Virus record (IMG/VR): IMGVR_UViG_3300037461_001295
Location: 1 to 40,272 of that record
Direction: 5' to 3' (one strand)
Length of the DNA stretch: 40,272 bases
Source of the DNA: a virus
Lineage: Duplodnaviria; Caudoviricetes
The notes under the pieces were generated by a model that worked only from the letters and a program-made list of their open reading frames with translations, did not search any database and had not been told where the DNA came from. Made by a program: the position numbers and the translations under genes. Within the stretch, counting starts at the first letter, position 1. Each line of letters begins with the position of its first letter. This document shows positions 5,156 through 40,150 of the stretch, piece by piece.

Positions 5156-5190
5156 AATCTCAGATCTCAACTCTCAGATCTCAAATCTCC
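5156..5190. repeat. Heptamer tandem repeat, AGATCTC family
   Basis: aaatctc agatctc aactctc agatctc aaatctc; second array at 6249-6270. Confidence 0.85.
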
Positions 5191-5192
5191 GC

Positions 5193-6152
5193 CTACGCGC
5201 TGGCCTTGAGGTTGATCTGGATGACGGCCGGACCCTCCTGCCGCGTCGCGCCCTTGGAGGCGAAGCCGTGGCAGTACCACTCGTTCTGCTGGTGGCTGTC
5301 CTGCCACATCTTCGGCGTGATGTCCTGGCCGATGCCCAGGGCGATCGCCCCGCCGACGCAGGCGAACGCCTTGATGCAGTCCGTCTCCGTCGTGTCCCGC
5401 GAGAGCTGCTCCGTCCAGAGGAACTTGAACCCCATGAACTCGTCGACCTGACCGTGGGCCAGGGCCTTGACCGTGTTGTAGTCGATGCTCTTGACCTCGG
5501 TCGTCTGGAGGAGCTGCCACTTGTTGTAGCTGTTGGCGATCAGGAAGCGCGGCTGGGTGAAGCCGTTGTCCTGGGTGAAGCCCGCCTCGTCGAGCAGCTC
5601 GCCGCAGAGGCCGATCTTGGCGATCGTCAGGGCCGTCGCCGTCGTGTCGCTGTGGCCGGAGCCCGCCGTGACGAGGGTCCCGTCCCCGGCGACGAGCCGG
5701 CACTCGCCCACGTCGTAGTTATTGACCGTGGTGATCGAGGGGGCCGTGCCGGCGGCGTCCGACGTCACCTGGGTATACGCCGCCCCGCCGAGCGCCTCGA
5801 TGATCAGGCTGTTCTCGGCCCGGTTGAAGGCGTTGACGCAGAGGACCGGGTACTTGCCCCGGAAGTCGATGATCGAGCGGATCTCGTCGGAGGGGTCCAG
5901 GTACTCGCCCCAGACGTCGTCGACGGTCCAGCCGCGCCGGCGGTCGTGATACGTCGGCGTCCACGGGTTGGTCTGATGCCGGGCCGACTTCCGCACGACC
6001 TCGGAGCCCTTGAGGCGGTCGCCGTAGAAGACGGCGCCCTGGACCGGCTTGATCTCGCAAATCTGACGCAGGAGCGCCCGGCTCTCCTCCGCCAGCATCC
6101 GCACGTTGGAACTATACTGCTCCACGTGCGCCTGATTGATCTCGGTTCCCAT
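5193..6152 (-). CDS. Major capsid protein
   Basis: 319 aa from MGTEINQAHVEQYSSNVRML; VKSIDYNTVKALAHGQVDEFMGFKF and GATRQEG motifs typical of BPP-1-like podovirus capsids; follows scaffold gene; GGAGAG SD. Confidence 0.9.
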   Translation of the reverse strand: MGTEINQAHVEQYSSNVRMLAEESRALLRQICEIKPVQGAVFYGDRLKGSEVVRKSARHQTNPWTPTYHDRRRGWTVDDVWGEYLDPSDEIRSIIDFRGKYPVLCVNAFNRAENSLIIEALGGAAYTQVTSDAAGTAPSITTVNNYDVGECRLVAGDGTLVTAGSGHSDTTATALTIAKIGLCGELLDEAGFTQDNGFTQPRFLIANSYNKWQLLQTTEVKSIDYNTVKALAHGQVDEFMGFKFLWTEQLSRDTTETDCIKAFACVGGAIALGIGQDITPKMWQDSHQQNEWYCHGFASKGATRQEGPAVIQINLKASA

Positions 6153-7888: not shown

Positions 7889-8156
7889 CGCTCGTGAGCT
7901 CCGAAAAAGGTTCCTTGGTTTGGCCGGCCCCGCGCGACCAGGCGAGGCCGATCTGGGTCGTGACCTCCTGCAGGACGCGCAGCGCCCCGCAGCGGTAGTC
8001 CGTCAGGTGCGGGTTCTCCGGGCAAAAGGGGTTGGCCCCGAACTTCTCCTCGAGGTCCCGCAACACCACCGCCCCGTCCCGCGTCCCGAAGCAGCCCCGG
8101 TAGGCGTCGAGGACCTGCTCCTCCGTCAAGGGCGTCTGTCCGACCACCGCCGCCAT
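7872..8156 (-). CDS. Small portal-adjacent protein (Bbp19-like)
   Basis: YRGCFGTRDGAVVLRDL motif; start overlaps the portal stop. Confidence 0.7.
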   Translation of the reverse strand: MAAVVGQTPLTEEQVLDAYRGCFGTRDGAVVLRDLEEKFGANPFCPENPHLTDYRCGALRVLQEVTTQIGLAWSRGAGQTKEPFSELTSDVQPR

Positions 8157-9829
8157 CAGGCCGCCTCCGCCAGGGCGGCCGCCGGCGAGCCGGGCTCCGG
8201 CCGCTTCGTGAGCTTGCCGAACTCCGCCGCCTGCTGAAACGCCATCTGTTGTTGCAGCTGGGCGGCCTGGTACTGCATCCGCTTCTCGCGGATCGCCCGG
8301 ACCTCGTCCCGCGGCTTGAGCCACCGGGGGGGCAGGGCCATCTTCTCCGCGATCCCGCGCGAGATCTCATCGAAGCTGAAGTTGTCCCAGATCTCCGGCG
8401 CAATCTCCGCAAACGGCGACAGGAAGATCATGGCGTCCTGCATCGCCATCATCTCCGCGTACTCCATCGCCAGGGCGAGCGTCGAGGTGTACCGGATATT
8501 CGCCAGGTTCAGCAGTCCGAGCGGCAGCCCGCCCAGGAGCTCGGGCACCTCGGCGAAGATCGCCAGGTTCACGCGGATCAGGGCGTCGAAGAGCTCGACT
8601 TTCATCTGCCCGAACTGTGGGCCCAGCAGCCGCATCTGATCGTGCAAAATCGCCCGGACCTCCGTCGCCGTCTTCTGGCGGTCCTGGTCCAAAAGCACCA
8701 TGAAGAGGTCGTTGAAGCAGGCCGCCCGGATGATCTGGCGTTTGCTGTCGGCGTACTCGATGCCCAGGTCCGGCCGCGCCCCGGTATTAAACGGCTCCGG
8801 CTTGAGCCCGGGATGGGCGGCGTTCGGGCGGTACCAGATGATCGAGCCGGGCTTGACGACGACGGCCGGCTTGCCCGCGCCGTCGACCCCGTTGGCCACG
8901 AGGCTCTGGGCCGGGGCCAGGATCGACGGCCGGACCAGGCCCTCCGCCCCGACGATGACCGCCTCCTCGATCTTATTGACCATCTTGACGTCCGGCAGGC
9001 AGGTCATCAGCGGCGCCCGCCCCTCCTGCTCGCCCGAGGCCACCATCCAGCGGCACACCAGGTATCGCAGCTGCGGCCAGCCACTCTCGCGCAGGACGTG
9101 CTTATCCTGCACGGCCACCCACGTCGAGGCGAGCGGCATGTCCCGCACGTCCCAGCGGCCCGGGGTGAACTCGGACCGGGGGACCGCCGCGTGGATCACC
9201 TCGAACTTCTTGTCGCGGCCCCGGCCGCCCTCCTGCTCGTAGGCGTCCGAGATCGCCTTGCCCACCGCCGCCTCGCCGCGGCCGAACTCGGCGACGAGCT
9301 GCCGCGTCGTCCAGGAGAACCGCCGCAGCACGGCGTCCGGCCGGTCCTCGCCGTCGACGCTGAAGACGCACTGTTCGTAGGGGTAGGTCGTATACCGGAG
9401 CACGCTGCGGCGGCCCCGCGCCGGCTCCATGACGCAGCGGCCCGCCGTCATGAGGTCCAGGAACGCCTTGTAGGCCGCCTCCGCGAAGTTGGAGCGGGCC
9501 ATCTGGTCCCGCATCTGCTCCGAGACCCCGAGCATCGACCGGCCGAACTCGCCGGCGAGCCGGCCGAACTCGATCGGCGGGGTCAGGAGGAACCAGGCCC
9601 GGTCCGAGGGACACATGGCCCCGTAGAGCCCGCTCGCCCCCCGCCCGACCGCCGTCTCCGCCGTCGAGTCGAAGAGCTCGCGGTGGAGGTCCTCACCCGG
9701 CGTCCGCGTCACGGTGACCGTCGCCCGCTGGGGCAGGCCGTACTCCATGACCTGCTGCACCAGGGCCTTGTGATTGGCGCGGTCGGCGTCCCAGCGGTTA
9801 TAGGTGGCGATGATCTCGCTGGCGTCCAT
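8156..9829 (-). CDS. Portal protein (head-to-tail connector, T7 gp8/Bbp21-like)
   Basis: 557 aa; FDSTA...L..GL...WF, RW...GE..GRAP, KTATEV, LGP motifs. Confidence 0.93.
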   Translation of the reverse strand: MDASEIIATYNRWDADRANHKALVQQVMEYGLPQRATVTVTRTPGEDLHRELFDSTAETAVGRGASGLYGAMCPSDRAWFLLTPPIEFGRLAGEFGRSMLGVSEQMRDQMARSNFAEAAYKAFLDLMTAGRCVMEPARGRRSVLRYTTYPYEQCVFSVDGEDRPDAVLRRFSWTTRQLVAEFGRGEAAVGKAISDAYEQEGGRGRDKKFEVIHAAVPRSEFTPGRWDVRDMPLASTWVAVQDKHVLRESGWPQLRYLVCRWMVASGEQEGRAPLMTCLPDVKMVNKIEEAVIVGAEGLVRPSILAPAQSLVANGVDGAGKPAVVVKPGSIIWYRPNAAHPGLKPEPFNTGARPDLGIEYADSKRQIIRAACFNDLFMVLLDQDRQKTATEVRAILHDQMRLLGPQFGQMKVELFDALIRVNLAIFAEVPELLGGLPLGLLNLANIRYTSTLALAMEYAEMMAMQDAMIFLSPFAEIAPEIWDNFSFDEISRGIAEKMALPPRWLKPRDEVRAIREKRMQYQAAQLQQQMAFQQAAEFGKLTKRPEPGSPAAALAEAA

Positions 9830-16180: not shown

Positions 16181-16224
16181 AGTGGTCAGTAGTCAGTTGT
16201 CAGTGGGCAGTTGGCAGTGGTCAG
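16181..16224. repeat. Heptamer tandem repeat, CAGTNGN family
   Basis: agtggt cagtagt cagttgt cagtggg cagttgg cagtggt cag; related arrays at 18812-18853 and 20134-20188. Confidence 0.85.
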
Positions 16225-19053: not shown

Positions 19054-19809
19054 TCACGCTCCCGCCGGGGCCGGCCCCAGCTTGCTGTTGACGCAGGGCA
19101 GGCCGTCCGGATCGGCATGGTCGTAAAACCGGTGGCCGCGGCCCGACGGCCTGGCCGGCACCTGCTGCATGCACTCCGGACACGTCGCCGTCAGGACGAC
19201 CCCGCCCGGGGCCGGCTTCGCCGCCGGCGTCTGGCGCGGCGTGCCTGTGTCCAGGACGCACGCCAGATCGACCTCGATCCCGCCGTCCACCCACGCCGCC
19301 GCGTAACGCATCCGCTGCGCCGGCTGGATCCCCCACCCGCGCAAGCCCCCCACGGCAGAAACCCGCACTGTCTGGCCGTGTTTGCCCCCACGCGGGCCCA
19401 CCCGCAGCGCGCCGGCCGTATTGCCCTCCGTCTCCATCAGCCGCAGGCGTCGTCGCGAGGCCGAGTACCACAGCCGCAGGTACTTCGTCGCGGTCAGGCC
19501 CGCCGCCAGTGCCGCGGAGATCGACAGCGTGCCCGCACGCCCGATGCTGACCCATTCACCCACCACAGGCCGCGACCCGCCCCAAGTGCCGCCCTGGTAC
19601 TCGACCCAGTCATCGGCCGCGGCAGTCTTCGCATTCTTCGCCATCGTCATCATCTCCTTATCGCCCGCAGGTACTCCGTCCTCATACTCGATCGCCGCGT
19701 CCAGGGCCGCCGCCTTTTCGTCGTCCGAGACGTGCGCGTAGGCGTCGTTCGGCCGCTGGAGCGGCGCGGGGTTGCGCTGGTATCGGCGCGGGTGGCTACC
19801 CGTCTTCAT
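19054..19809 (-). CDS. Hypothetical protein with C-terminal Cys/His zinc-finger-like motif
   Basis: ATGA-coupled start at 19809 (alternative internal start near 19650); CPEC...H...C. Confidence 0.6.
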   Translation of the reverse strand: MKTGSHPRRYQRNPAPLQRPNDAYAHVSDDEKAAALDAAIEYEDGVPAGDKEMMTMAKNAKTAAADDWVEYQGGTWGGSRPVVGEWVSIGRAGTLSISAALAAGLTATKYLRLWYSASRRRLRLMETEGNTAGALRVGPRGGKHGQTVRVSAVGGLRGWGIQPAQRMRYAAAWVDGGIEVDLACVLDTGTPRQTPAAKPAPGGVVLTATCPECMQQVPARPSGRGHRFYDHADPDGLPCVNSKLGPAPAGA

Positions 19810-20126
19810 GGCGCCGTCTCTCGCCCGGCGGCCGGCGCGACGCCGGCCCCGCCCTCCGGTAGGGCGTCCGGCGCCTGGCCACTTTTGAGATCGTCGCGGA
19901 CGAGCCACTGCGTGGCCGCCACGAGGTCGTAGACGAGCTGCGCCACGATCGCGATGACGGCCAGACCGAAGATCATCCAGGGCGAGGCCCCCTGCTGACT
20001 GAGCATCCAGATCGCCACGACGGCGATCGCCGTCTTTTTCCTGCCGACGTGACTGATCACGCCGGCCACGGCCGCCTCGATGTTGCTGGCGACCGGTTTG
20101 TCAACGCCGTTGCTCCTGCTGTCCAT
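19806..20126 (-). CDS. Small two-TM membrane protein (holin-like)
   Basis: 106 aa from MDSRSNG; GRKK then two hydrophobic helices and a charged tail. Confidence 0.55.
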   Translation of the reverse strand: MDSRSNGVDKPVASNIEAAVAGVISHVGRKKTAIAVVAIWMLSQQGASPWMIFGLAVIAIVAQLVYDLVAATQWLVRDDLKSGQAPDALPEGGAGVAPAAGRETAP

Positions 20127-20178
20127 CCGTGGCCTCTCAGTTCTCAGTTGCCAGTTGGCAGTTGTTAGTTGCAAGCCG

Positions 20179-20490
20179 TCAGTTCTCCGCCAGGGCGGCC
20201 GCCAGGAGCCGCAGGCCACGGGCGATGATCTTCATCAGTCGCCGCGTCACGGCGTCCGCCTGCCGCGTCGCCCGGATCCCCGCCTCCAGGAGGACGACGT
20301 CCCGGACCGCCTTGACCATCTCGTCGTAGTCCGGCTCCCCGAGGTGCGGCGCCAGCCGCTCCGCCCGCTGGGCCGCGAACTCGATCAGCTCCGCCGCCGA
20401 GCCGCGGATCTCCACGCCCGCCTCCTCCAGGCAATCGAAGACCAGATTCGCCAGGTACTCCTTCAACTGCGTCTCCTGCTCACTCGCCAT
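20179..20490 (-). CDS. Hypothetical helical protein
   Basis: 103 aa, overlaps the lipoprotein gene. Confidence 0.65.
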   Translation of the reverse strand: MASEQETQLKEYLANLVFDCLEEAGVEIRGSAAELIEFAAQRAERLAPHLGEPDYDEMVKAVRDVVLLEAGIRATRQADAVTRRLMKIIARGLRLLAAALAEN

Positions 20491-20830
20491 GGCCGCTCAA
20501 TGCCTCCACTGCCTCGGTGAATTTCTCGATCCGTTCGCCCCGGAACTCCGCGAGTCCCGGGCTCATCCCCGTCAGGGCGGCCCGCGCCGCCGCCTCGACC
20601 GGCGGCCAGGCCGCCGCGATCGCCGCCGGCATACCATAGACCAGCGACTCATCCATCCGCGTCAGTTCGGCCTCCGTGGCCCCGCCGGCCAGGGCATCCG
20701 CCCGCACCCCGACCCACGCCTGCCGCATCGCCGGCAGCAGGGCCCGCTCCCGGGCCGCCGAGCTCAGGCACCCGCCCAGCGGCAGGACCGCCAGCAGGAA
20801 AACGATCGTAGGAAACGTCCGTGCTCTCAT
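20480..20830 (-). CDS. Putative lipoprotein
   Basis: MRARTFPTIVFLLAVLPLGGC lipobox; AAGGAG SD. Confidence 0.7.
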   Translation of the reverse strand: MRARTFPTIVFLLAVLPLGGCLSSAARERALLPAMRQAWVGVRADALAGGATEAELTRMDESLVYGMPAAIAAAWPPVEAAARAALTGMSPGLAEFRGERIEKFTEAVEALSGHGE

Positions 20831-22340: not shown

Positions 22341-22387
22341 CTTGCATGGGGTGCAAGAGGTCGGTGGTTCAAGTCCACTCGCCCCGA
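22341..22387 (+). other. attP: attP core: 3' half of tRNA-Pro(GGG)
   Basis: CTTGC-ATGGGGT-GCAAG anticodon arm (GGG), T arm GGTGG-TTCAAGT-CCACT, acceptor 3' strand CGCCCCGA; no 5' half; about 20 bp from the integrase stop. Confidence 0.88.
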
Positions 22388-25605: not shown

Positions 25606-25794
25606 GTGTCTCCATCGTCTGGTCGTCGGGCAGACTAGCCAAAGCTCGTTCCATCAGCGCGGGCCCTCATCAAAGATGCCATACAAATGCGCTTGCGACC
25701 CCAACCGTCTCGTGATAGTACAACGTCCGGGCCGTCGGGTCTATTGCCGTTTTTTTTTTCGCAAACCGCGTTCCGCGGGGAAAGGGGAGCGTCT

Positions 25795-26232
25795 ATGAAC
25801 CGTCTCGTGATTCTCACCGCCTTGCTGATCGTCGCCGGGCTCGGCCTGAACTGCGCCGAGCTGTCGACCTCTACGGCCGGCTACGGCGAGAGCATCGAAA
25901 TCGTGGCCCTCAAAGACCAGGTGGCCGATATGCGGCGAGAGATGACGGGCCTGGACCGCCGAGTGCAGAATCTCGAACTGCAGGCGATCATCCGGGACCA
26001 GAGCCCCCCCGCCACGCTCAAAGACGAGAACTGGAAAACCGCGAACGAAGCAATCTTGCATACCGCGAGTCAAAAAGGCTGGCTCGCCGCTTTACAGCAG
26101 GCCGTAGACCCCGTGTGGCAAATGGAGATGCACCTCAGTATGTCTCAGGCCGCCGCCTTGTGTAGGGCCATCGAGCCCTTCGCTAACCCCGTCACCCCCG
26201 CAGCTTCACAATCGCCACGAGCAGCCCCGTGA
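25795..26232 (+). CDS. Exported/lipoprotein, lysogenic-conversion or superinfection-exclusion candidate
   Basis: 145 aa MNRLVILTALLIVAGLGLNC; coiled coil; GGGGAG SD; follows the repressor, lower GC. Confidence 0.65.
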   Translation: MNRLVILTALLIVAGLGLNCAELSTSTAGYGESIEIVALKDQVADMRREMTGLDRRVQNLELQAIIRDQSPPATLKDENWKTANEAILHTASQKGWLAALQQAVDPVWQMEMHLSMSQAAALCRAIEPFANPVTPAASQSPRAAP

Positions 26233-26425
26233 CCGTCGAGGCCAGCAGGCTGATCAGGACCGTCGCCCAGAGGGGCAGCCGGTTTCTTAGGGCGTTGACG
26301 GCCTGCCACAGGTCGTCGTGCTCATCCCGGTTCTCCCGCTTCAGGTCCCCACAGGCCCGCTGCAGCTCCTCGATCTCCGCCCCGTGCTTGGCCCCGATCA
26401 CACACTCGCCGTTGCCCATAACCAC
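26192..26425 (-). CDS. Small coiled-coil protein with C-terminal TM helix (lysis-associated type)
   Basis: 77 aa, last gene of the late operon; LPLWATVLISLLASTVTGLLVAIV. Confidence 0.7.
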   Translation of the reverse strand: MVMGNGECVIGAKHGAEIEELQRACGDLKRENRDEHDDLWQAVNALRNRLPLWATVLISLLASTVTGLLVAIVKLRG

Positions 26426-26491
26426 CGTTCCTCGTCGCTCGTTGCTCGTCGCTCGTCACTCGTTGCTCGTCGCTCGTTGCTCGTACGTCGG

Positions 26492-29005
26492 TCACAGTCC
26501 CAGACCGCTGTGGATGCGGTAGCGCACGATCACCCGCATTACGGTGTCGTTCGCCGCGTTGCCCCCGTAGTCCGCCCCCGTGTTGACCAGGACGAGGGCC
26601 TTATTCACCAGGCTCGTCGCCGCCGTCCCGGCGAGGCTGACCGGGATGGCGAAGGCCCCGGTGTCCGCCGTGGCCGTGATGAAGCCGCTGGCCACGATGT
26701 CGGCCGAGGCGGCCGCCCCCGCGTCGTTCGTGTAGCTGATCCGCAGGTCGTCCGGCGACGAAGGCTCCGTCAGGGCGTTGGAGCCGTAGTCCAGCCACAA
26801 GCTCGCGCCGCAGAACTCCAGGAACTTGCCCGCCCCCGGGGCCGCCACGAGCGTCACCGCCGTGTCGGCCAGGTCCTTGAGGTTGGCGTTCGTGAGGTCC
26901 ACGATGGCGATGCTCTCGCGGACGTAGGCGGCAGCGTCCACGTCGCTGTCCTCGTAGAAATCCAGCCACCCGGCCGAGGTCGCGCCGTTGGACACCTGGA
27001 GGCCGGCCAGGGCCTTGAGCAGTCCATTCTGGTCGAGTTGCAGCCGCACCACTTCGCCGGAAGCGTTGCGCGTCGTCCAGTACCAGCCGCCGTAGCCGCC
27101 CGTGGCGTCGCGCAGGCCGTAGAAGCTGATCCCCGTGGTGCCGCTGTCGGTGGAGGTCCCGACGCGCAGGCCGCCGCCGACCCCGTTGGTCGTCGTGTTC
27201 GGCGTCATGAGCAGTTGCCGGGTGGCCGCGCCCGCCGCCTCCGGCTGGAACAGCACGCCGTCGATATAGACCTTCTTGCCCGCCGCAATACTCAGCGCCC
27301 CCGTGCCCGTGGACGGATTCAGATCCACGCCACTAACCTTGCACTCGTAGCCCGCCGTGCTGCCCGCAATGTAGAGACTGTAAGCGCCCGTCGCGGCGGC
27401 GACCAGACTGCCGCCGACGATCGTGGTGTTCGTTCCGTTCTCGTAAAAGGCGTGATAGGCCCCGGTCCCAGTTCGGCCCGTCAGAATGCCGCCGACGAAC
27501 GTGCAGCGGTTGCCCGAGTTATTGACGCCGTATCGCTTATTGGACGCGGTGTAGCAGTCGATGAACTGATGCGTGTTGGAGGAAGCGTCGATCAGGATGC
27601 CGTCGGTATTGGTACGCAGGTCCGCCCCGCTGTGCAGCCGGTACACCCGGCAGCCGGTTGACGTAGAGGTGAAGTGCGCGTTCGCGAAGGCCCCGGTATC
27701 CCCTTCGTCCGAATCCTCAACCTCAACCTCGAAAATCGACAGGTCGCCGCCGGTGACGTACAGCCCCTCCTCGTAGCAGCGATAGATGGTCGAGAACTGA
27801 ACCCAGCCGTACCCGGCCCCATAGTCCACCCCATGCTCCTTGCAGAAGTTGATTTTCAGGTTCGCCAGGTTGATGCAGGCGGCCGTCGCCTCCGTGACGA
27901 TGCCGGAGCCTGACGCCTGATTCTCGCCGTTGCCGTTGAGATAGAGGCCCTGGACCGTGACGTTCTTGGTCCCCGCGGGAATGGAGATCATGTCACAGTC
28001 GGAATCGTCCGCCAGGTACAGTTGCGTATTGGCCGTGTCGGGGACCGTCGAGAAAATCGTCTGGCCGTCGCCGCGTAGGATCACGCCGGCTTTCATTGTG
28101 AGCGTATCGGAAATCAGGTAAGTGCCCGTCGGGAGAACCACTACGCCCCCGCCCGCCGCGTAGGCGGCGTCGATGGCCGCCTGGATGACCGTCGTGCTGT
28201 CCGTCGCCCCGGTCGGATCGGCCCCGGAGTCCGTCACGACGTAAGTCCCGGCGTCGTAGAGGCCGCGGAGCGCCAGGTTGCCCGCCGCCGTACCCAGGCC
28301 CAGACTCGCCAGGGACGACGCCAGGTTCAGATCGTCCAGGACGGCCGTCCAGAGCGGCGAGGCCGCCAAGTCCGGCAGGGCGGAGCCCGTGACGCTCAGG
28401 TTGCCGTCGGCGTCGAAGATCGCGTAGCCGCTCGCCCGGTCCACGGCGCTGGGGACATTGACGTCGTAGCTCTGGCCCTCGGTCTCCGGGATCAGCAGGG
28501 CCCGGTAGAGTTGCCGCTGGAGGTACTGGACCTGGCAGCTCAGCTTGTCGAACGCGTCCTCGATGGCCCCGAGGTTCACGTAATAGCTCCCGTCGATGCT
28601 CGTCGTCTGGGTCAAGGGCGGATACCGGGTGATATGGACCGTCACGGCCGTCGTCGGCGCCGTCGTGAAGGTCACCGTCCCGCCGGGGGTCCCGTCCCAG
28701 TAGTCCCCGTCGCCGTCGTTGTCGGCGACGGTGTAGTCGCTATTGAGCGTCTGGACGCTCTCGGCCCCCGTCGCCGTCGTCCGCAGCACGACCCGGACCT
28801 CCGAGGTCGCGAAGACCCCGAAGGGGAACGTGAACGCCGTCGTCGAGCCGTCGCCGCTATAGCTGATCCCGTCGACCGCCGAATTCACTTCGCCGGCGGC
28901 CACGCCGGCCAGCAGCAGGCCCAGCCCCACCGCCGCCGCCAGCAGCAGCGCCACCCACACCACGCCCGCCATCGCCCGTCGCTCGTCTCTCGTCGCTCGA
29001 TCCAT
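26492..29005 (-). CDS. Tail fibre/tailspike: signal-peptide-like leader, T7 gp17-like N-domain, pectate-lyase-like beta-helix
   Basis: YSGDGSTTAFTFPF...DYTV...GGTVTF...IEDAFDKL; GADPTGATDSTTVIQAAIDAA...GGGVVVLPTGTYLISDTL; AAAGGAG SD. Confidence 0.88.
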   Translation of the reverse strand: MDRATRDERRAMAGVVWVALLLAAAVGLGLLLAGVAAGEVNSAVDGISYSGDGSTTAFTFPFGVFATSEVRVVLRTTATGAESVQTLNSDYTVADNDGDGDYWDGTPGGTVTFTTAPTTAVTVHITRYPPLTQTTSIDGSYYVNLGAIEDAFDKLSCQVQYLQRQLYRALLIPETEGQSYDVNVPSAVDRASGYAIFDADGNLSVTGSALPDLAASPLWTAVLDDLNLASSLASLGLGTAAGNLALRGLYDAGTYVVTDSGADPTGATDSTTVIQAAIDAAYAAGGGVVVLPTGTYLISDTLTMKAGVILRGDGQTIFSTVPDTANTQLYLADDSDCDMISIPAGTKNVTVQGLYLNGNGENQASGSGIVTEATAACINLANLKINFCKEHGVDYGAGYGWVQFSTIYRCYEEGLYVTGGDLSIFEVEVEDSDEGDTGAFANAHFTSTSTGCRVYRLHSGADLRTNTDGILIDASSNTHQFIDCYTASNKRYGVNNSGNRCTFVGGILTGRTGTGAYHAFYENGTNTTIVGGSLVAAATGAYSLYIAGSTAGYECKVSGVDLNPSTGTGALSIAAGKKVYIDGVLFQPEAAGAATRQLLMTPNTTTNGVGGGLRVGTSTDSGTTGISFYGLRDATGGYGGWYWTTRNASGEVVRLQLDQNGLLKALAGLQVSNGATSAGWLDFYEDSDVDAAAYVRESIAIVDLTNANLKDLADTAVTLVAAPGAGKFLEFCGASLWLDYGSNALTEPSSPDDLRISYTNDAGAAASADIVASGFITATADTGAFAIPVSLAGTAATSLVNKALVLVNTGADYGGNAANDTVMRVIVRYRIHSGLGL

Positions 29006-29023: not shown

Positions 29024-32000
29024 CTACCGCCGGCGGCGGCGCCGTACGGCGGCCCGCCGGCCCGCGGCTGTCTGCGGTTTGTCGTTCTGGCTGGGCGGTC
29101 CGCCCAGCACGTAGCTCGGATCCAGGTTCCACACCGCCCGCACCAGGTCCCGCGGGCCGGTGTACGGCACGCCGAACCAGGGGGCCAGATTCTTATACAG
29201 CCGGTGCGTCGCGTCCAGGATCTCGGCGTCGTCCACGTCGCCGGCGGCCACCCGCTCGCCCAGGCGGTACAGGTCCGCCCCCGTCTGGGCCAGGCCCTGC
29301 AGGGCCGGCACACCCTCGCCGCCCCAGCCCCGGTACGCCGCCACGACGGCGGGCCCGATCAAGGGGATCATCTCGACGGCCTGGCCGCCGAAGATCTCCC
29401 GGGCGTCGTCGTCGTCGTCGGGCAGCCGGCGGTTCGCGATCATCCACATCAGCGAGGCCTCGATGCCGATGCCGATGAACGTCTTGACGGCCCGCTCATA
29501 CTGGCGGTTCTTCATCAGCATGGGCAGGTCGTAGCTCGTGACGTTCCAGAGCTTGTTCAGCTCGTTGGTGAACTGCGTCAGCAGCAGCAGATACTCCTGG
29601 CTCGTGCGGTAGATCTCGGGCAGCTGGAACACCCGGGCCCCCGCCTGCGTCAGGCTCGTCGCCAGGCGGGCCTGCGCCACCGCCCGCGCCTCGTCGCCGT
29701 GGGCCGCCATCTCGTGCAGGTACACGCCGTACCAGCCGATCGTGCGGCCGACGCTGTCCATCCAGACCAGGCCCCGCATCCCCGCCTCGCCCAGCCACTG
29801 GCGGAGGTCCTCGTACTTGGCCGGGTCGCGGGCCCGCATCTCCTCGAGCTCCCGCTCCAGGGCCGGCCGCTCCGTCAGCGGATCGCGGCTGGTCACGAAG
29901 TCGCGGACCTGCGTCCAGTGCGCCGTCGCCGCCAGGCCCGCCCGCAAGAGATCCAGCCCCGCATAGGGCAGCATCCGCACCATCGAGACCGGCTGCTTGA
30001 TCATCGTCGAGAGCTTGTAGGCCAGAAAGGCAATCGCCGTATTGCGGCGGATCCGCCGGGCCAGCCGCTCCGCCTCGCCATAGGTCCGGTAGATGTTGGG
30101 GTTGCCCACGGCGTCCACGTACCGCCGCAGCATCTCGTGGACCTCCTTGCCGCCGCGGTCCGTCACCGCCGCCCGCACGCCCTCGTCGCTGAGCAGGGCG
30201 TGCAGGTCCTTGACGATCCCGCCCAGGGCGATGTAGTGCTCCTGCCGCTCGATCTGCTCCAGCAGCAGCGTCCAGGCGTCCAAACGGATCGGCTTCTGGT
30301 ACTCGGGCTTGATGTCCTTGCGGCTGATCGTCATGCCCTTCTCCGCGTAGCCCCGCTGGAAGTGGTGCCGCTGCATCATCTCCGTGAGGACCTGTCGCTC
30401 GTCGGGGCTGTAATCCACCTCCATGCGGCGGATCGGCGTGTAGTTGGGCTCGCGGCCCATGTCCCGGTCCTCGGTGTCGATCACCGCCTGCCGCAGCCGG
30501 TCGTAGTGCTGGTCGTAGTGGTCCACGATCCAGTCGGCCAGGGCCTTGAGGTCCGCCCGGGCCTCGACGAACTCCTGCACCCGCGTCTGGTCCGCCTGGC
30601 CGATCCGGTTGCCGAAGGTCACCGCGAGGCGGGCGGAGAGGTTCTGCATGAAGTTGTAGATCCCGATCGCCTGCTGGACCGTGATCGTCTCACCGTTGAT
30701 GATCAGGGCGTCGGCCGTCAGGTCCCGCAGCGTGAGATTCAGCCGCGCCAGCTCCGCCTCCGCCGCCGCCACCCGCGCGCGGATCCGGACCAGCTTGGCG
30801 CTCTCGGCCTCCACCACCCGCTCCCAGAAGATCCGGAAGACCGCCCCGGCGAAGTTGACCCGCCGATCCAGCCAGTCGAAGAGCCGCTCCGGCGTCAGCG
30901 TCGCCGCGTAGCGGTGCCACCAGCGGTCCCGGGCCGTCTCGGCCGGTGGCCGCACGATCGGGGCATCCAGGTCCAGCGGTGGCAGGTCGCCGCCGCGGAC
31001 CGAGTCGATCACCGCCTGCGCGTCGCGGGCCCGGCGGTCGTCCCGGGCGATATTCTCGCGGGTCCGCAGGATCTTGCCCTTACGCCGCAGCTCGCGGACC
31101 GCCCGGGCGATCTGCTCCAGCTCCGCCACCGTCCACTCTGACGGGCTCTTGGCCTTGATGATGGCCAGGGCCTTCGCCGGGGCCTGGGCCTCCGGATGCT
31201 CGGCGAAGAACTTCCGCGCCGCCTGCCGTTCCGCCACGGTCCGCCGCGACCGCCACCGTGGATCGATCTGGCTCTGCAGCTCCTCGATGGCCGCCCGCTG
31301 GTCGAAGGCCACGGTCTTGCCCACCGGCCGGCGGATCGACGCCAGGAGCTTGGCCACGTACTCCCGCAACTGCTTGCGGGCCTTGACCCGCTGCTGCTGG
31401 GCGCGGTAGGCCGCCCGGGCCTGCGCCACACCCTCAGCCGTCCCGGCCCGGTAGGCGTCCACCAGGGCCTCCCGCAGCCGCTTGAGCTCCGCCGCGTCCT
31501 CCAGCAGGCCGCTGATCAGCTTGCCGAAGAGGACCTGCTTCTCCGCCTCGACGATCTGCTCGGCCACCTTCTCGGCGTCCACCGCCTCGATCTCGGCCTG
31601 CTGCTCGGCCGTCAGGGTCTCCGTCGCCAGGACCTGCCCGACCGACAGGTCCCCCGTGAGCTGGCCGGCCTTGATCGCCTCCCACTCCGCCACCAGTCGC
31701 TTGTGCCAGGCGCGGGGTTTCTCGGGCACGTCCAGCGACCAGGCCCGGACCCAGGCCGAATCGGGGTTGCCCAGCTCCGCCCCGAGGCGGGCCATGAACT
31801 GCCGGAAGTCCAGACTCCCCGGGTGCGGATCGGCCGGGTCCGCCACCGTACCCCCGGCGATCAGGATGTCCCCGTAGTCCGCCCGGTCCATCCCGGCCGC
31901 CTCACCAATCGCCGTCAGGGCCTGGTTGACCTCGAACGCCCCCAGCCCCGCCCGCAGGAGGCGGCGCTTCTCGGCCAGGATTTCCAGGAAGGGATCGCCG

Positions 32001-34927
32001 CTGCGCAGAGCCTCGGTCAACGCCTGCTCGCTGAGGCCGCCCGCCAGCTGCCGCTCGCCCGCCACGACCTGCTGGAGCCGCTGGAGGAAACCGTCGAGGT
32101 CCTCCGGCCAGCCCAGTTCCGCCGCCGCATCGTCCCAGTGCTGCCCGGCCTTCGGGTCATGGGTGATCATGTTCCACATGGCCATGTTGGCGCCCTTGCC
32201 GAACCGCTGGCCCGCGTAGCCCTCGACCTCGCGCTTATACCCCTCGGGGATGTAGAACATCCCGGCCCCCGTGGACCGGAAGGCCGCCTGCTCCGCGCCT
32301 TCGGCGGCCGCCTGGTAGATCGGGTGCTGGCGGATCGCGTCCTCCGTCGCCTTGAGCTCCCGCCGCCCCGTCTGGCCCTTGGCCGCGTAGCCGGTCTTGG
32401 CCTTGATCATCTCGGCGATCGCCGCGGCGAGCTGCTGCTTCTTGCCCCGGACCGTCACGCCGATCTCTTTGGCCTTCTCCTCCAGGGCGGCATAGCTCAA
32501 ATCGCCCAGGGCCCCGCGGACCGGGTCCGGCTCCTCCAGGATCGACGCCCCGCCCAGCGACGACCAGAGCTGCTGGAGCGCCGGCCGGACCTGCTCGCCG
32601 AAGTCCTCGATCATCCGCTTCGACCAGGCGGCGAAGGTCCGCGCCCCGGCCTCGAAATGGAACGTCGCTGCCTTGGCGAGGTCCGCCCAGTCCTGGGGAT
32701 CGAAGAGGCTGGTGCCCCCCGCCTGCCGGCCGCCGGGCAGTTTGCCCGTGGCCTTGCGCCGCGCGAGGATCTCGGCGTACGCCTCCGGCGTGACCAGGCG
32801 GTTCGTCGAGCCCCACGCCGCCGGAGGCGGCGCGGCGCTCGTCTCTCGTGTCTCGGCACTCGTCGCTCGTGTCTCGGCACTCGTCGCTCGTATCTCGTCG
32901 CTCGGTGCGGCAACGATGGCGCTCCGGTCGAAGATGACAACCTCTTCGTTGACCGTGGCGTTATCGCGTATGCCCCGCACGACCAACGCATCATGGCCGG
33001 CCGTCCGCGCCCTGTCACTCAGGGAGGCCAAATCCTCAGCGCTACGTATCGGCACCCACGCGCCGCCGATCCGCGCGTCAAACGGCATGACCTGTTCCCC
33101 CGTCAGGATGCTCTCGTACGCGCCGGTTTCGTCCTGGAGGGCCGCCGCTTCCGGCGCGGGCCGGTAGTTGACGCCGGCCGCGGCGTCGATCACCAGGGGA
33201 TTGCCGATGCGGACCGGGACCTCCAACACATGGGCCCCATAGTATTCGGCCGTCTGCTGGTCCTGCCCGAGATAGATGCCCGGTCCCAGGCTGCCTTCGT
33301 AGGCAGGCGTAGCGGCGGCCAGTTCATCCACCGTAATGGGCTGATCCGTGCCGTGGTACAGTGTCACGGTCGGCGCCTGGGCGGCCGATTCCGCTGCGCC
33401 TGGGGCTGCCGGCGGGCCGATCTCCGGTGCGGGGGCCGGTTGGACCGTCTCGGCCGCCGGGACGGCCGTAGCGGCGTCAGCGGCCCGCTCGGGCACCGGG
33501 ACGGCAATCTCCGTCAGCCGCACGTCCGGCAGGGCCCGCTGGACCGCCGACCGCTCCCGCCGCAGGGCGTCGATCTCCGTCGTCACCGACAGAGCCGTGC
33601 CCGGGGCGCCCAGGACGGTGAACGATTGCAGGCTCTTGGCCCCCACCTCCAGCAGCCGCCGGCGGATCTCCGCGATCGTCGCCCGCTGGACGGCCTGCGG
33701 CGAGTCGGCCCCGGCGAAGGAGAGCCGCACCTGCCGCCAGTATTCCTCGGTCGGCAGGTCCCAGTCCGGCATCGGCACCTCCGGCGTCCAGGAGGGGGGG
33801 ACCCCGAGCCGCTCGGTCAGCCACTTGCCGAACTCCTCCGCCGTGATGTTGACCGACTCCTGCGCCAGCTCCTGGAGCGTCTCGGCGGCGAGGTAGCCGC
33901 CGAACTGGGCCGCGTGCCGCGCCGCCAGGTTCCGGAGCGTCCCCTGCGCGAGGAGGCGGTCCACCACGCCCTTCATGCCCAGCTTGACGAGGTTCTTGCC
34001 GCCGGGCAGCGTTTCCAGCAGCAGCGAGATCTGGCCCATCTCCAGGGCCCCGTTGAGGGCCCCGATCCCGAAGGAGGCCGCCTTGGCGATCTTCGGATCG
34101 ATCCCGGCGTCCAGCAGGTCCAGCACGGCCAGACCCGCCTCCAGCTGCCCCACCCGATAGGCCCCCGCCAGGCCGGCCCCGAGTTTGACGCCGCTGAAGG
34201 TCAGCGACGGGATCAGGGCCTCCTCCCCGAGCGTCGGCGAGGCCGCCGAGACCGTCACGCCCGCCGCCGCCCCGGCGACGCCGCCGACAAGGCCGCCCAC
34301 CGGCGCCGCCTCCAGCGTTTGGCCCAGCAGCGGCAGCTGCTCGGCCGTCGCCCCCAGCATCTTCTCCCACAGCGGCCGCTGTTTCGCCAGAAAATCCGCC
34401 GACCGCAGGCCCCGCAGCCGCTCGATCTCGCGCCACGTGTCCGCGGTATCGCGATTGAGCAGCACGTCCAGACCCAGATCGGCGAGCTGCACGTTGACCT
34501 GGCCGTCCTGATACGCCTGGCCGATCCGGCCCCAGGCGTCGTCGTAGTCGAGCCGCTCCCCGAAGAGCTGCTCGGTGATGTCGTCCGTGTGGGCGACGGC
34601 GATCTCCGGCGGCAGGCCCAGCTCGAGCTGATAGAATGTCTGGAGTTTGCCTTCGGCATCCGGCTGATAACGTCGCCCCACGATCGTCCCCGCCCGTTCG
34701 TCCAGGGGATCGAAGAGCTTACGCGTCTCGGGGTCGGCAATCCCCAGCCGGTCCGCCCAGCCGGGCCCCTGGGGCCGAAAGGTCACGACCTGCCCGAAGA
34801 GCGGATCGCGGACCTCGGCCGCCTCCTCCGCCGTTGCCTGCTGCCGCAGCGTCGTCAAGGACGGCACGCCAGCCGCCGCCTCCTGCCTCAGTTGTGCCAG
34901 CGTCTTTACCGCCACTTGCCCACCCAC
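29024..34927 (-). CDS. Large polyvalent internal virion (ejection) protein with ADP-ribosyltransferase-like domain
   Basis: 1967 aa, helical, at the T7 gp16 position; LYHGT...LGPGIYL...AEYYG...GHDALVV...EVVIFD domain; EAGARTFAAWSKRMIEDFG motif. Confidence 0.8.
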   Translation of the reverse strand: MGGQVAVKTLAQLRQEAAAGVPSLTTLRQQATAEEAAEVRDPLFGQVVTFRPQGPGWADRLGIADPETRKLFDPLDERAGTIVGRRYQPDAEGKLQTFYQLELGLPPEIAVAHTDDITEQLFGERLDYDDAWGRIGQAYQDGQVNVQLADLGLDVLLNRDTADTWREIERLRGLRSADFLAKQRPLWEKMLGATAEQLPLLGQTLEAAPVGGLVGGVAGAAAGVTVSAASPTLGEEALIPSLTFSGVKLGAGLAGAYRVGQLEAGLAVLDLLDAGIDPKIAKAASFGIGALNGALEMGQISLLLETLPGGKNLVKLGMKGVVDRLLAQGTLRNLAARHAAQFGGYLAAETLQELAQESVNITAEEFGKWLTERLGVPPSWTPEVPMPDWDLPTEEYWRQVRLSFAGADSPQAVQRATIAEIRRRLLEVGAKSLQSFTVLGAPGTALSVTTEIDALRRERSAVQRALPDVRLTEIAVPVPERAADAATAVPAAETVQPAPAPEIGPPAAPGAAESAAQAPTVTLYHGTDQPITVDELAAATPAYEGSLGPGIYLGQDQQTAEYYGAHVLEVPVRIGNPLVIDAAAGVNYRPAPEAAALQDETGAYESILTGEQVMPFDARIGGAWVPIRSAEDLASLSDRARTAGHDALVVRGIRDNATVNEEVVIFDRSAIVAAPSDEIRATSAETRATSAETRETSAAPPPAAWGSTNRLVTPEAYAEILARRKATGKLPGGRQAGGTSLFDPQDWADLAKAATFHFEAGARTFAAWSKRMIEDFGEQVRPALQQLWSSLGGASILEEPDPVRGALGDLSYAALEEKAKEIGVTVRGKKQQLAAAIAEMIKAKTGYAAKGQTGRRELKATEDAIRQHPIYQAAAEGAEQAAFRSTGAGMFYIPEGYKREVEGYAGQRFGKGANMAMWNMITHDPKAGQHWDDAAAELGWPEDLDGFLQRLQQVVAGERQLAGGLSEQALTEALRSGDPFLEILAEKRRLLRAGLGAFEVNQALTAIGEAAGMDRADYGDILIAGGTVADPADPHPGSLDFRQFMARLGAELGNPDSAWVRAWSLDVPEKPRAWHKRLVAEWEAIKAGQLTGDLSVGQVLATETLTAEQQAEIEAVDAEKVAEQIVEAEKQVLFGKLISGLLEDAAELKRLREALVDAYRAGTAEGVAQARAAYRAQQQRVKARKQLREYVAKLLASIRRPVGKTVAFDQRAAIEELQSQIDPRWRSRRTVAERQAARKFFAEHPEAQAPAKALAIIKAKSPSEWTVAELEQIARAVRELRRKGKILRTRENIARDDRRARDAQAVIDSVRGGDLPPLDLDAPIVRPPAETARDRWWHRYAATLTPERLFDWLDRRVNFAGAVFRIFWERVVEAESAKLVRIRARVAAAEAELARLNLTLRDLTADALIINGETITVQQAIGIYNFMQNLSARLAVTFGNRIGQADQTRVQEFVEARADLKALADWIVDHYDQHYDRLRQAVIDTEDRDMGREPNYTPIRRMEVDYSPDERQVLTEMMQRHHFQRGYAEKGMTISRKDIKPEYQKPIRLDAWTLLLEQIERQEHYIALGGIVKDLHALLSDEGVRAAVTDRGGKEVHEMLRRYVDAVGNPNIYRTYGEAERLARRIRRNTAIAFLAYKLSTMIKQPVSMVRMLPYAGLDLLRAGLAATAHWTQVRDFVTSRDPLTERPALERELEEMRARDPAKYEDLRQWLGEAGMRGLVWMDSVGRTIGWYGVYLHEMAAHGDEARAVAQARLATSLTQAGARVFQLPEIYRTSQEYLLLLTQFTNELNKLWNVTSYDLPMLMKNRQYERAVKTFIGIGIEASLMWMIANRRLPDDDDDAREIFGGQAVEMIPLIGPAVVAAYRGWGGEGVPALQGLAQTGADLYRLGERVAAGDVDDAEILDATHRLYKNLAPWFGVPYTGPRDLVRAVWNLDPSYVLGGPPSQNDKPQTAAGRRAAVRRRRRR

Positions 34928-36530: not shown

Positions 36531-36621
36531 GGTCAATGGGGTCAATCCGGTCAACGGGGTCCCTCCGCGACTCCGGCGGAGGAGGAGGAGGACCTGATTG
36601 ACCTCATTGACCTTAGTGACC
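36531..36621. repeat. 9-mer repeats (GGTCAATNN) in direct and inverted blocks
   Basis: ggtcaatgg ggtcaatcc ggtcaacgg ... gacctgatt gacctcatt gacc; also 37063-37123, 39460-39540, 20992-21021. Confidence 0.85.
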
Positions 36622-36625
36622 ATGC

Positions 36626-37033
36626 TCAGAAGAAACTCGAAAAGGCGTTGATCACCCCGCTCGTCTTCGCCCGGGAGGCGGCCTTCTTGAGCTCGCGGGC
36701 GTCGCTCATCAGACCCTGGTATTCCAGCTCGGCGTTGCGGGCGAGCATCATCTTGTCGAGCACGAACTCCGTCTTGGTTTCGGCCAAGACATCGACGGCC
36801 GTCCCCGTCATCCGCACCCCCGCCTCGCCGAGGAGCTGCCGCTGCGTCGCCAGGGTCCGCCGGGCGTCCTCCTCCAGGCGGATCTGGTCCCAGACGGTCT
36901 GGACCCGGACCTCGCCCGCCTGGCGTTTCTTCACGCGGCTCTGGGCCGTGAGGCTCTTGGCCTCCGAGAAGCCCGCGTAGAGCTGCCCGCCCGCGGCGGC
37001 GGCCTTACCTGCGATCGCTAAGGCTTGCCACAT
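36626..37033 (-). CDS. Small internal virion protein (gp14 position)
   Basis: 135 aa from MWQALAIAG after GGAGG; GEAGVRMTGTAVDV motif. Confidence 0.75.
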   Translation of the reverse strand: MWQALAIAGKAAAAGGQLYAGFSEAKSLTAQSRVKKRQAGEVRVQTVWDQIRLEEDARRTLATQRQLLGEAGVRMTGTAVDVLAETKTEFVLDKMMLARNAELEYQGLMSDARELKKAASRAKTSGVINAFSSFF

Positions 37034-37133
37034 GACGCGCCTCCCGCACAAATCATCAGTGAGGTCAATAGGGTCAATCCGGTCCAGGAAGGGACCGCAT
37101 TGACCGCATTGACCGGATTGACCATGGATCCCA

Positions 37134-39563
37134 TCAGCGCACCTCCACCGTCGCCACCAGGGCCCGCAGGGTCAGCGGCAGCGGGTAACTCTGGACCACC
37201 GTCACGCGGGCCCCGTCCGTCGCGTAGCTGGTTGGCAGGGTCATCTCCTCGAGGTCCCCGGTGAAGAGGTCGGGCACCCCGGCCAGCAGCGGCGCCCCGC
37301 CCGTCGTATAGGGCGGCTCGTAGAGCGACGCCGCGTCCGGCCCGAACGCCGCCCCGAGCGTCTCGGCCACGCTCGCGGTCAGCCGTGAGACGGCCTTGCG
37401 CCGCTGCCAGGTCGTGCCCTGCTCGCCGGCCAGGTCGTAGCGGACCGTCGTCAGCGTCGAGGTATAAGACCAGCCCACGTGGACGACCGAGGCCGCCACG
37501 TCGAGCGTCACGGCCCCCGACGCCACCGTCTTACCCGCGACCGGGGCCCCGTCGGCGCAGATCGCCACGTCCTCGCCTTCGAGGTGATCGAGTCCCGAGA
37601 TCGTCGTGGCCGCCGTCGAATCGTAGGAGAGCCCGCCGTCCACGAAGTAGGCGTCCTCCTGATCGTCGCCCCAGTCCCAGGGTTTGAGGTACTCCACGTA
37701 GCGCACCGTCGCGCCATCGACGCTCCGCCGGACGGTGAGCCACAGTTCGTCCTCCGTCGCGCCCGGGATCGCGCAGAGGCTCTCGACGACGCCGGCGCCC
37801 CCGAGCGGATGCCGCGACCAGGCGACGACCTGGAAGTTCCGGTCGTAGGTCAGGGCGACGAGTTGCCCATCCGCCCGGCAGGACCAGAGGATCGTATGCG
37901 GCTGCTGGCACCAGGCCAGGCCGGTGAGCCCGCCCTCGGTGACGTGCTCGGCGAAGAGCGTCAGGTCCGGCGCCACGAGGGCATCGGCGTCGTAGCTGTA
38001 GAGGACCTCGCGGAGCTTCCGCCCGCCGCGCTGCAGGACCAGGAGGATGTTGTCCGCCATGACCGGCGGCACCGCGGCGCAGGGCAGGGCCAGCGTATTC
38101 GAGATCGAGGGCGGATTATTCGGCTTGATCGCCTGGGTCGTATCGAGCGGCTCCAGCTCAAAGAGACTGCCCGTCGTCCCGACGACCAGGCCGCGCTTTC
38201 TTTGGCTCTGGAGCCAGAGGATCGGGTCCTGCTCGCTGCGCCCCATCTCGTAGCCGAACGAGTCGTCGTCGTCGGTCCCCGCCGTAAAGTCCTCGTATTC
38301 GCCCGTCTTGGAGAACCACAGCGTCAGCGGCTGGTACGTCGTCGCCGCGTAGACGATCCGGTCGTTATAGCTGCCCACGGCCGCCGGATGGCCGCGGTAC
38401 TCACTCCAGGCCCCCTCACTCCAGCGGACCGTGGCGTCGGTATTGGCCAGGGTCCGCAGGACCGTCGCCGCCGCCGTCCGGGCGCCCGAGACCTTGGTGA
38501 TCTGGACGACCCCGACGTGCATGTAGGCGTGGGCCCAGACGGTATAGCCGATCGTGCCGGAGGTGTAGGCCGTGCAGTAGGCCCGGATCAGGACGTCCTG
38601 GCCGGTGTCGTTCGTATAAACCTCCGTCGGCGACGAGACGGCCCCCGTCGCCGTGACGATCGTATAGGCGCTCCAGGTGGACCCGGCGTCGTAGCTCATC
38701 TGGAGCTCCAGCGTCCCCGTCCACGTCCCGCCGACCGACCACTGGAACTTATTCTCCGCCTGGACGCTCACCGTCGCCGAGCCCGTCGCCGCCGCCGAGA
38801 GGGTCCCGGCCACGGAGGAGATCTCCACCAGGTCACGCAGCCGCCACAGGCTGCCGACGTGCCCGGCGACAAACGTATCCGCCGAGGCCGTCAGGGTCAC
38901 CGTCCCCGTCGTGCCGTCGGCCGCGATCGTGGCCGCCGTGAGGTTCTCGTCGAGGAAGGGCCCGTCGTCGATCCCGGCGTCCGCGATCGTCCAGCTGTTA
39001 TGGCCGCTCCGCGTCAGCTCCTGCGGCCAGTCGTTCCCATCGACGAGGTAGCAGACGTCGGCGTTCTGGAGGACCTGGAGATTCGCCAGGTCGCCCTCCT
39101 CGAACGGCGTCGCCAGCTCGTAGATCGCCCCGGCGTCCGTCTCGACCAGGCCGTGGTCCCGGAAGACCCGCATCAGATTGGCCGTGAACTCCAGGACGTA
39201 GCTGTCGTCCGTCGAATACCGAAAGGGGATCAGCCGGGCGAGGTTATTGCTGTCCGTGGCCGCGACGTAGTACGTCCCCGGCCGGCGGAGGAGCGGGCCC
39301 TGGGGGACGGGCAGGAGGTTTTCGAGCGTCGTCGCCGAGCGGTAGTACCGCTCCGCATCGAGCCGGGCCGCCGCCAGCGGCGAGAGCTCGCCGCCGGTGA
39401 AAGCCGACTGCATCAGCGGAAACGACGAGGCCCGGGCGAAGGGCGCCAGCGCCGTTGCCGTCAGTAAGGTCAATAAGGTCAACACGGTCCCACCCCTCCG
39501 GAGGGACTGGACCTCATTGACCTCGTTGACCTGATTGACCTTTTCCGCGTCTCGTCTCATCAT
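37134..39563 (-). CDS. Tail tubular protein B / nozzle (T7 gp12-like) with signal-peptide-like N-terminal extension
   Basis: QSAFTGGELSP, RRPGT, RLIPF, LWFSKTGEYEDF, AWSRH, YFVDGG motifs; start overlaps the tail A stop (ATGA). Confidence 0.9.
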   Translation of the reverse strand: MMRRDAEKVNQVNEVNEVQSLRRGGTVLTLLTLLTATALAPFARASSFPLMQSAFTGGELSPLAAARLDAERYYRSATTLENLLPVPQGPLLRRPGTYYVAATDSNNLARLIPFRYSTDDSYVLEFTANLMRVFRDHGLVETDAGAIYELATPFEEGDLANLQVLQNADVCYLVDGNDWPQELTRSGHNSWTIADAGIDDGPFLDENLTAATIAADGTTGTVTLTASADTFVAGHVGSLWRLRDLVEISSVAGTLSAAATGSATVSVQAENKFQWSVGGTWTGTLELQMSYDAGSTWSAYTIVTATGAVSSPTEVYTNDTGQDVLIRAYCTAYTSGTIGYTVWAHAYMHVGVVQITKVSGARTAAATVLRTLANTDATVRWSEGAWSEYRGHPAAVGSYNDRIVYAATTYQPLTLWFSKTGEYEDFTAGTDDDDSFGYEMGRSEQDPILWLQSQRKRGLVVGTTGSLFELEPLDTTQAIKPNNPPSISNTLALPCAAVPPVMADNILLVLQRGGRKLREVLYSYDADALVAPDLTLFAEHVTEGGLTGLAWCQQPHTILWSCRADGQLVALTYDRNFQVVAWSRHPLGGAGVVESLCAIPGATEDELWLTVRRSVDGATVRYVEYLKPWDWGDDQEDAYFVDGGLSYDSTAATTISGLDHLEGEDVAICADGAPVAGKTVASGAVTLDVAASVVHVGWSYTSTLTTVRYDLAGEQGTTWQRRKAVSRLTASVAETLGAAFGPDAASLYEPPYTTGGAPLLAGVPDLFTGDLEEMTLPTSYATDGARVTVVQSYPLPLTLRALVATVEVR

Positions 39564-40150
39564 AGTCGCGAATCCTTCCAGGTCCCGGCGTGGATGACGA
39601 CCGGGCTCGACTCCAGACTATCGGCCGCCAGCGCCTGCGGCTCCGAGACCCGCTCGTGCCACTCGCGGAGCATCGTCGCCACCTCGACCCCGCCGGAGCC
39701 CAGGAGCCCCGGGGCGATGGCCGCCGCCAGGCGGTAGACGAGCGCTTCGACGAAGAGGTCGTCGTAGACGTCCGTGTCGAGCGTGTAGCGGATCATCGAG
39801 ATCAGGGCGCTCGACGTGTCCGTCAGGAGGGTCCGGCCCTCCACCTTCCACTCGACCGTCGGGTCCTCCAGGGCCGTGACGGCGATGCAGTCGGTCGGCA
39901 AGCTGTAGGCGTAGGCGTACCCAAAGGCCGGCGTCGTCGTCAGGTTGCCCGAGATGTCCCGCCGGGTCTCCAGGCACTTGGGCCGCAAGGCCCGGGCCGC
40001 CGCCCGGAAGGCTAGCTCGAAGTGCATCCCCACCTGGAAGGCCTCCTGGCTCACCGTCTCGCCCGCCCCGGGGGTCAGACTGTGGATCTGCTTCGTGCTG
40101 CCGCACTTGGCCAGGGCCATATTCCCGATCGTCACCAGCGAAAAGCTCAT
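39560..40150 (-). CDS. Tail tubular protein A / adaptor (T7 gp11-like)
   Basis: IGNMALAKCG, PAFGYAYAYSLPTDCI, VEGRTLLTD, DDLFVEALVYRLAAAIA; double AGGAG SD before ATG 40150 (an in-frame ATG also lies at 40270). Confidence 0.88.
   Translation of the reverse strand: MSFSLVTIGNMALAKCGSTKQIHSLTPGAGETVSQEAFQVGMHFELAFRAAARALRPKCLETRRDISGNLTTTPAFGYAYAYSLPTDCIAVTALEDPTVEWKVEGRTLLTDTSSALISMIRYTLDTDVYDDLFVEALVYRLAAAIAPGLLGSGGVEVATMLREWHERVSEPQALAADSLESSPVVIHAGTWKDSRL

Follow-up and report, generated by a model that had tools for sequence, protein, structure and literature searches.

Does the tail nozzle of this phage carry a genuine export signal and, if so, where would its virion be completed? To our knowledge, the accepted view is that virions of tailed phages are completed in the cytoplasm. 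A preliminary description of the DNA analysed here (the window, a 40,272-base virus record with a GC content of 69% and a 117-nt repeat at each end) had proposed that the nozzle begins with a signal-peptide-like leader partly built from 9-mer repeats, and that nozzle and fibre are specifically exported. We find that the nozzle leader is very probably a translated export signal, and that the podovirus tail appears here in a real and conserved variant that is apparently unreported; the assembly route built on it is a proposal. A predicted export signal sits on the protein that closes the DNA channel and persists in nozzles down to 35% identity; were the export real, the last assembly steps and the sealing of the DNA would take place across a membrane.

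The window is a complete-looking temperate podovirus, with terminase, portal, capsid and tail genes, an integrase, an att site and circular ends. Profile matches identify the large and a probable small terminase, portal, scaffold, capsid, adaptor and nozzle, as well as three ejection-type proteins, a fibre, a ParB-like protein and a tyrosine integrase, and the tail is of the epsilon15/HTVC010P-like type. The adaptor, or tail tubular protein A (39560..40150, minus strand; PHROG 394), is followed by the nozzle and then by the ejection proteins, and the nozzle thus lies at the place expected for the T7 gp12 type. The nozzle ORF (37134-39563, minus strand, read from 39563 to 37134) encodes 809 residues, of which residues 50-808 match PHROG 376 (E 5.6e-186). 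The solved chain 8ck1_A matches at E 2.5e-170, and the top Foldseek matches are nozzles, with a TM score of 0.52 to 8ck1 for a model of moderate confidence only (pLDDT 62.9); no Pfam family matched the nozzle at E 0.01. Since residue 50 corresponds to profile position 6, the family N-terminus lies at about residue 45, with Met51 inside it. The translated ORF and its register with homologues thereby divide into a 45-residue leader (39429..39563, minus strand) and a predicted mature nozzle of 764 residues (tail tubular protein B, T7 gp12/Carin1 type; 37134..39428, minus strand).

The features first described for the leader were recovered on re-examination. It spans codons 1-45 exactly, from 39563 to 39429; its first ATG forms an ATGA overlap with the adaptor stop, a second ATG following directly; and Arg and Lys residues, a hydrophobic region (score 2.34) and an A-X-A site are all present, the last as an A-R-A that lines up with where the mature protein begins in relatives, just before the usual nozzle N-terminus. 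This arrangement is that of a Sec/SPase I signal, with a basic, repeat-containing n-region, an h-region at about residues 27-43 and small residues at positions -3 and -1 of the predicted cleavage site A43-R44-A45, although the n-region is long (26 residues, net charge about +1). Tat signals have an S/T-R-R-x-F-L-K-like consensus. By eye, we recognised neither a Tat nor a lipoprotein signal in the leader, in which RR is followed by GG and Cys is lacking, and RR is absent from most relatives. In the AlphaFold model the leader is a separate helix of low confidence, which says nothing on export.

Absence of the leader from relatives had been named as an outcome that would speak against it, and the opposite was found. 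A viral scan with the single sequence returned only 3 distant loci. Among the 120 matches listed from 190 nozzle homologues found, the closest 25 (57-66% identity) include 22 with a hydrophobic leader, 20 by score and 2 by eye; the other three are one weak case and two proteins annotated from a short start. Mature starts of the close relatives lie mostly five residues before a conserved M/L-Q-S, which is the position of S46. More distant homologues split into proteins with textbook MKK-type leaders, carried by many relatives at 35-41% identity among the matches listed, and proteins that begin directly with the family motif. A broader set of loci was taken from viral, metagenome and genome collections (one search kept 80 of 588); the nozzle N-terminus was readable in 183 of 186 sequences, giving 132 loci after removal of near-duplicates at 90%. 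Leaders were called where a start codon was followed by an uncharged 9-mer with a mean hydropathy of 2.0 or more that finished close to the family start, a heuristic, distinct from SignalP, that gives visible false positives. On this basis, 36 of the 132 non-redundant loci have a nozzle leader, 34 by rule and 2 by eye (L160 and L005, the latter with a score of 1.64).

Leaders of this kind are predicted for nozzle and fibre and are lacking in head and neck proteins, a restriction first noticed in the window that holds across relatives. The window fibre or tailspike (26492..29005, minus strand), which combines a T7 gp17-type docking domain with a pectate-lyase-like domain, has its own leader of about 37 residues, with a Shine-Dalgarno (SD) pairing of -8.2 and no Met after the leader. 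Within the 35 loci flagged by the rule, window included, fibres have a leader in 6/6 cases, as opposed to 0/24 adaptors, 0/6 portals, 0/11 scaffolds and 1/12 capsids, the single capsid being a false call whose Met lies at the family start. Among the remaining 97 loci the same rule called 0/92 adaptors, 1/43 capsids and 1/13 fibres. The earlier statement that head and internal proteins lack leaders stands for capsid (5193..6152, minus strand; PF19821), portal (8156..9829, minus strand; PF12236), adaptor and scaffold, and by eye for the gp14-like internal virion protein (36626..37033, minus strand; PHROG 418, weakly PF24072) and the gp15-like protein; it does not extend to the gp16-like ejection protein (29024-34927, minus strand), whose start is not fixed. 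The latter has a DarB-like match (PHROG 10089) and a weak ART-PolyVal match below the cut-off (PF18760). Co-occurrence of leaders on gp12-like and gp17-like proteins, which the preliminary description had proposed to survey, comes down to one independent pair, a weak point of the export reading. The six closest fibre homologues all have a leader and ten more distant ones all lack it. Other ORFs of at least 200 residues near the nozzle are signal-like in 66/254 cases at leader loci vs 20/609 elsewhere, a comparison that includes a few false calls and loci that are not phylogenetically independent.

In a FastTree phylogeny of 122 nozzles (10 short ones set aside), the leader trait requires 5 changes, compared with 27.7 for shuffled labels. 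One node with support 99 holds 30 of the 31 leader-bearing rows and 20 leaderless rows, and the window nozzle falls within a clade of 11 that all have leaders. Leaderless nozzles inside the support-99 node that have signal-bearing neighbour genes (L001, L023, L134 and L139) suggest a graded series, from export of appendages alone to export of appendages and nozzle. A planctomycete is the probable host, according to a search that covered Planctomycetota and Pseudomonadota: a candidate attP beside the integrase (22341-22387, plus strand) shares all 47 nt with the 3' part of a tRNA-Pro(GGG) in one Planctomycetota genome (G035) and matches two more with 2 mismatches (3/401 genomes), with no match in 151 Pseudomonadota genomes. 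Genome G035 has no nozzle and stands alone in its class, without relatives at order or class level, and GTDB genomes contained no close prophage. Mapping the leader to a host phylum, as had been suggested, gave no phylum rule, and we rejected the leader as a host-phylum trait: nozzles occur in 12/401 Planctomycetota genomes, and 11 of those 12 lack the leader, the sole exception being on a 20-kb contig in a Pirellulales MAG. As judged from the tree and these counts, the leader trait is a property of the phage clade and not of the host phylum.

How, then, might such a virion be assembled? A Sec/SPase I leader places the mature protein in the periplasm. Comparison of sequences demonstrates the leader, shows that it is conserved and confined to outer tail and appendage proteins, and reveals no good start at the usual N-terminus. 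On this basis we lean, with moderate confidence, toward Sec export, cleavage, periplasmic folding and a late joining to heads. The nozzle would be translated from the ATG coupled to the adaptor stop, and nozzle and fibre would cross the inner membrane by Sec rather than Tat, given that no S/T-R-R-x-F-L-K-like motif is seen by eye. SPase I would cut the nozzle leader after A45, and the mature nozzle and fibre would fold in the periplasm, while DNA-filled, adaptor-capped heads would be made in the cytoplasm. Because a periplasmic nozzle cannot reach heads in the cytoplasm before the inner membrane opens, joining would be late, when lysis breaches that membrane; no endolysin was recognised in the window, and lysis is therefore an assumption of this scheme. 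If export is real, virion maturation would be tied to the timing of lysis. Two observations count against this reading: a Met at the Met51 position is kept in 20/25 close relatives, and L160 has no standard start codon for its leader.

T7 tail parts are added within the cytoplasm. Heads of that phage receive gp11, then gp12, then gp17, the adaptor binding first and the nozzle hexamer next, and both together create the fibre sites, according to the parts of PMC6702177 consulted. The same parts place the first 45 residues of the T7 nozzle in the adaptor-binding platform, which fits removal of the leader here, and describe a closed portal that retains DNA briefly, an adaptor that reopens the portal valve and a nozzle that then holds the DNA (PMC6702177). 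Heads awaiting a periplasmic nozzle would consequently need another means of DNA retention, and we found none. Nor did glycosylation or paired cysteines stand out as a benefit of export, and both were rejected as such. Glycosylation motifs (D[ST][AILVMT] and NxS/T) were not enriched in 27 leader-bearing vs 81 other nozzles, D[ST]x motifs having observed-to-expected ratios of 0.73 vs 0.79. Cys content was 0.87% in leader-bearing vs 0.70% in other nozzles (p 0.013, uncorrected), an excess that vanishes with independent pairs, and Cys counts were even in 14 of the 27 nozzles, with no even-number bias. It is also possible, if doubtful, that a widespread tailed-phage clade has an obligatory two-compartment assembly, in which the DNA-gating nozzle and every appendage would be secreted and put together in the periplasm and filled heads would have to pass the inner membrane for sealing, perhaps without classical lysis.

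A more specific form of passage without lysis would have the exported nozzles and fibres assemble into tail platforms within the envelope, onto which heads would pass through the inner membrane, extruded or budded into the spacious periplasm of planctomycetes. It predicts a signal pattern identical to that of late joining and would agree with the lack of a recognised endolysin. A claim of non-lytic phage release exists for a Planctomycetes strain with a different phage, in the portion of the report consulted (PMC10945688). We nevertheless consider it improbable: no machinery for membrane crossing was identified, the window has holin-like and lipoprotein ORFs by eye (19806-20126 and 20480-20830), and relative G002 has a signal-bearing SLT lytic transglycosylase (L222:18230-18889, minus strand; PF01464, E 2e-8). 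The window contains small envelope-type ORFs at 18326-18796, 19806-20126, 20480-20830, 25687-26232 and 26192-26419, which comprise a signal with an Ig-like domain, a holin-like membrane protein, two lipoprotein-like proteins and one that is C-terminally anchored.

Slightly less probable again is a leader that acts as a temporary tether on the cytoplasmic side of the membrane until assembly, to be then removed or tolerated. The problem of DNA retention would disappear, and the Thr-rich, only moderately hydrophobic h-region of the window (best 9-mer 2.3) would suit such a role. SPase I, however, acts on the outer face of the membrane, and the basic-hydrophobic-small-residue layout, with mature starts in register across relatives, fits this enzyme; moreover, distant relatives have textbook signals.

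The start codons bear on whether a cytoplasmic nozzle is also made. Conservation of Met at the Met51 position in 20/25 close relatives could be read as evidence for two starts, Met51 giving the cytoplasmic virion nozzle and the long form being exported as a decoy or superinfection block. This we rank a little lower than the tether, as Met51 (39413) falls within the conserved N-terminus and, as the preliminary description had noted, has no SD: anti-SD pairing is 0 kcal/mol there, compared with -5.5 at Met1 and -10.0 at GTG27. The remaining 5/25 close relatives have no Met at this position. In its 45-residue leader and lack of an SD-backed family start, the window nozzle differs from the canonical family, whose cytoplasmic proteins start at the family N-terminus. 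Taking an anti-SD pairing of -4.5 or better as SD-backed, such a start exists at the family N-terminus in 1/36 leader loci vs 48/96 others, making a cytoplasmic form of the nozzle unlikely; 12/36 leader loci have no start codon whatever there, 22/36 have an upstream SD-backed start, and the fibre has no ATG at its family N-terminus in 7/7 cases. In loci without a leader, the nozzle family start directly adjoins the adaptor stop (median gap 1 nt in 91 loci, 77/91 within -15..+30), and ATGA coupling to the adaptor is retained in 10/24 leader-bearing relatives, with the leader inserted between. The best SD within the leader (-10.0) precedes the GTG at 39485 and is paired within a hairpin; a start at this GTG would still keep the h-region and A-R-A. 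On this reading, gene callers mis-start these nozzle genes, and the database copy of the window nozzle protein starts at residue 28. At the L160 adaptor-nozzle junction, an intact h-region and a cleavage-like site lack any ATG, GTG or TTG, and a 7-mer array there opens with an ATC that has an SD-like stretch in front of it.

The 9-mer repeats raise the question of whether the leader is encoded by accident. A search for the pattern GTCAANNNGGTCAA gave 11 matches in the window vs 0 in 100 shuffles. Paired inverted arrays (GTCAA/TTGAC; 39460..39541), identified by repeat search and folding, form a predicted mRNA hairpin within the leader (-83.2 kcal/mol over 191 nt, z -2.65, with 3/200 shuffles equally stable), and the two peptides attributed to them, VNQVNEVNEV and VLTLLTLLT from the inverted block, are both there. 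Repeat searches also found the paired element in non-coding form at the junctions of the nozzle and gp14-like genes (37063..37123) and of the gp14-like and gp15-like genes (36531..36621), which made chance read-through a serious rival. That an intergenic hairpin of frame-preserving 9-mers merely keeps the frame open and happens to encode Leu and Thr is nevertheless very improbable and largely refuted, since most close relatives have leaders without the 9-mer peptide, the leader state is clustered on the tree and the same rule called 0/116 adaptors. Because an LTxLT peptide occurs in only 6/25 of the closest nozzle relatives, some others having different repeat-like peptides and many none, the repeats are best seen as incidental to the leader: a dispersed hairpin element would have landed in a tolerant n/h region, the signal being independent of the 9-mers.

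In known systems, the nearest parallels differ from the predicted export of nozzle and fibre. T7 (gp12 nozzle, gp11 adaptor and gp17 fibre; PDB 7boy, 6r21) has the same order of adaptor, nozzle, ejection proteins and fibre, and its nozzle shares the fold of the window nozzle (Foldseek E 3.5e-12), but in the window nozzle and fibre have signal-like leaders and the genome has an integrase. The closest solved homologues, the Carin1 tail nozzle (PDB 8ck1) and LME-1 orf18 (9efk; E 5.4e-62), have the family motif within about 10 residues of the start of the deposited chain, which leaves no room for a leader. Nozzles of Salmonella phage epsilon15 and Pelagibacter HTVC010P type are the best cultured-phage matches (about 32-42% identity, 209 records); as judged from the alignments, the best 40 of 209 align from query residue 41-55 and leave the window leader unmatched. 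Phage users of Sec include filamentous phage coat proteins and signal-bearing endolysins and antiholins (PMC4823517, PMC8385771, PMC8951688). Unlike the window proteins, none of these belongs to the tail of a tailed dsDNA virion. The MAT fibres of Bdellovibrio (PMC10769870) are phage-like and are made for the cell surface. They are cellular adhesins, whereas the window genes belong to an intact phage morphogenesis module. Where export or periplasmic folding enters phage reports, the consulted text of PMC8951688 places a signal peptide on the endolysin only and that of PMC13412088 ascribes a DsbA effect to receptors, neither including tail export. Titles and abstracts from a full-text literature search, with subscription journals and supplements outside its scope, contained no report of signal peptides on tail nozzles.

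The window has further features at its gene junctions. Families of 7-mer tandem repeats (5155-5189, 11561-11629, 13650-13682, 16181-16224, 20137-20187, 26431-26484 and 32833-32904) lie mostly at gene junctions and enter some N-termini, and similar repeats invade the leaders of relatives. A perfect 26-nt inverted repeat (126-151 / 288-313), its arms 136 nt apart, sits a short distance upstream of the adaptor gene on the circular map; Rfam gave no matches in the window. In the virion operon, a weakly glycosyltransferase-2-like gene (2933-3787, minus strand; E 0.01) with homologues in about 11 loci could be a modifier of virion proteins. Finally, the accessory genes between capsid and adaptor (322-1782 and 1786-2922, minus strand) are without leaders in the window, and relatives G001-G003 have accessory genes with leaders, including a homologue of 322-1782 (L221:15425-15985; L219:17617-18849), so that the route of this family appears to switch between the window and its relatives.
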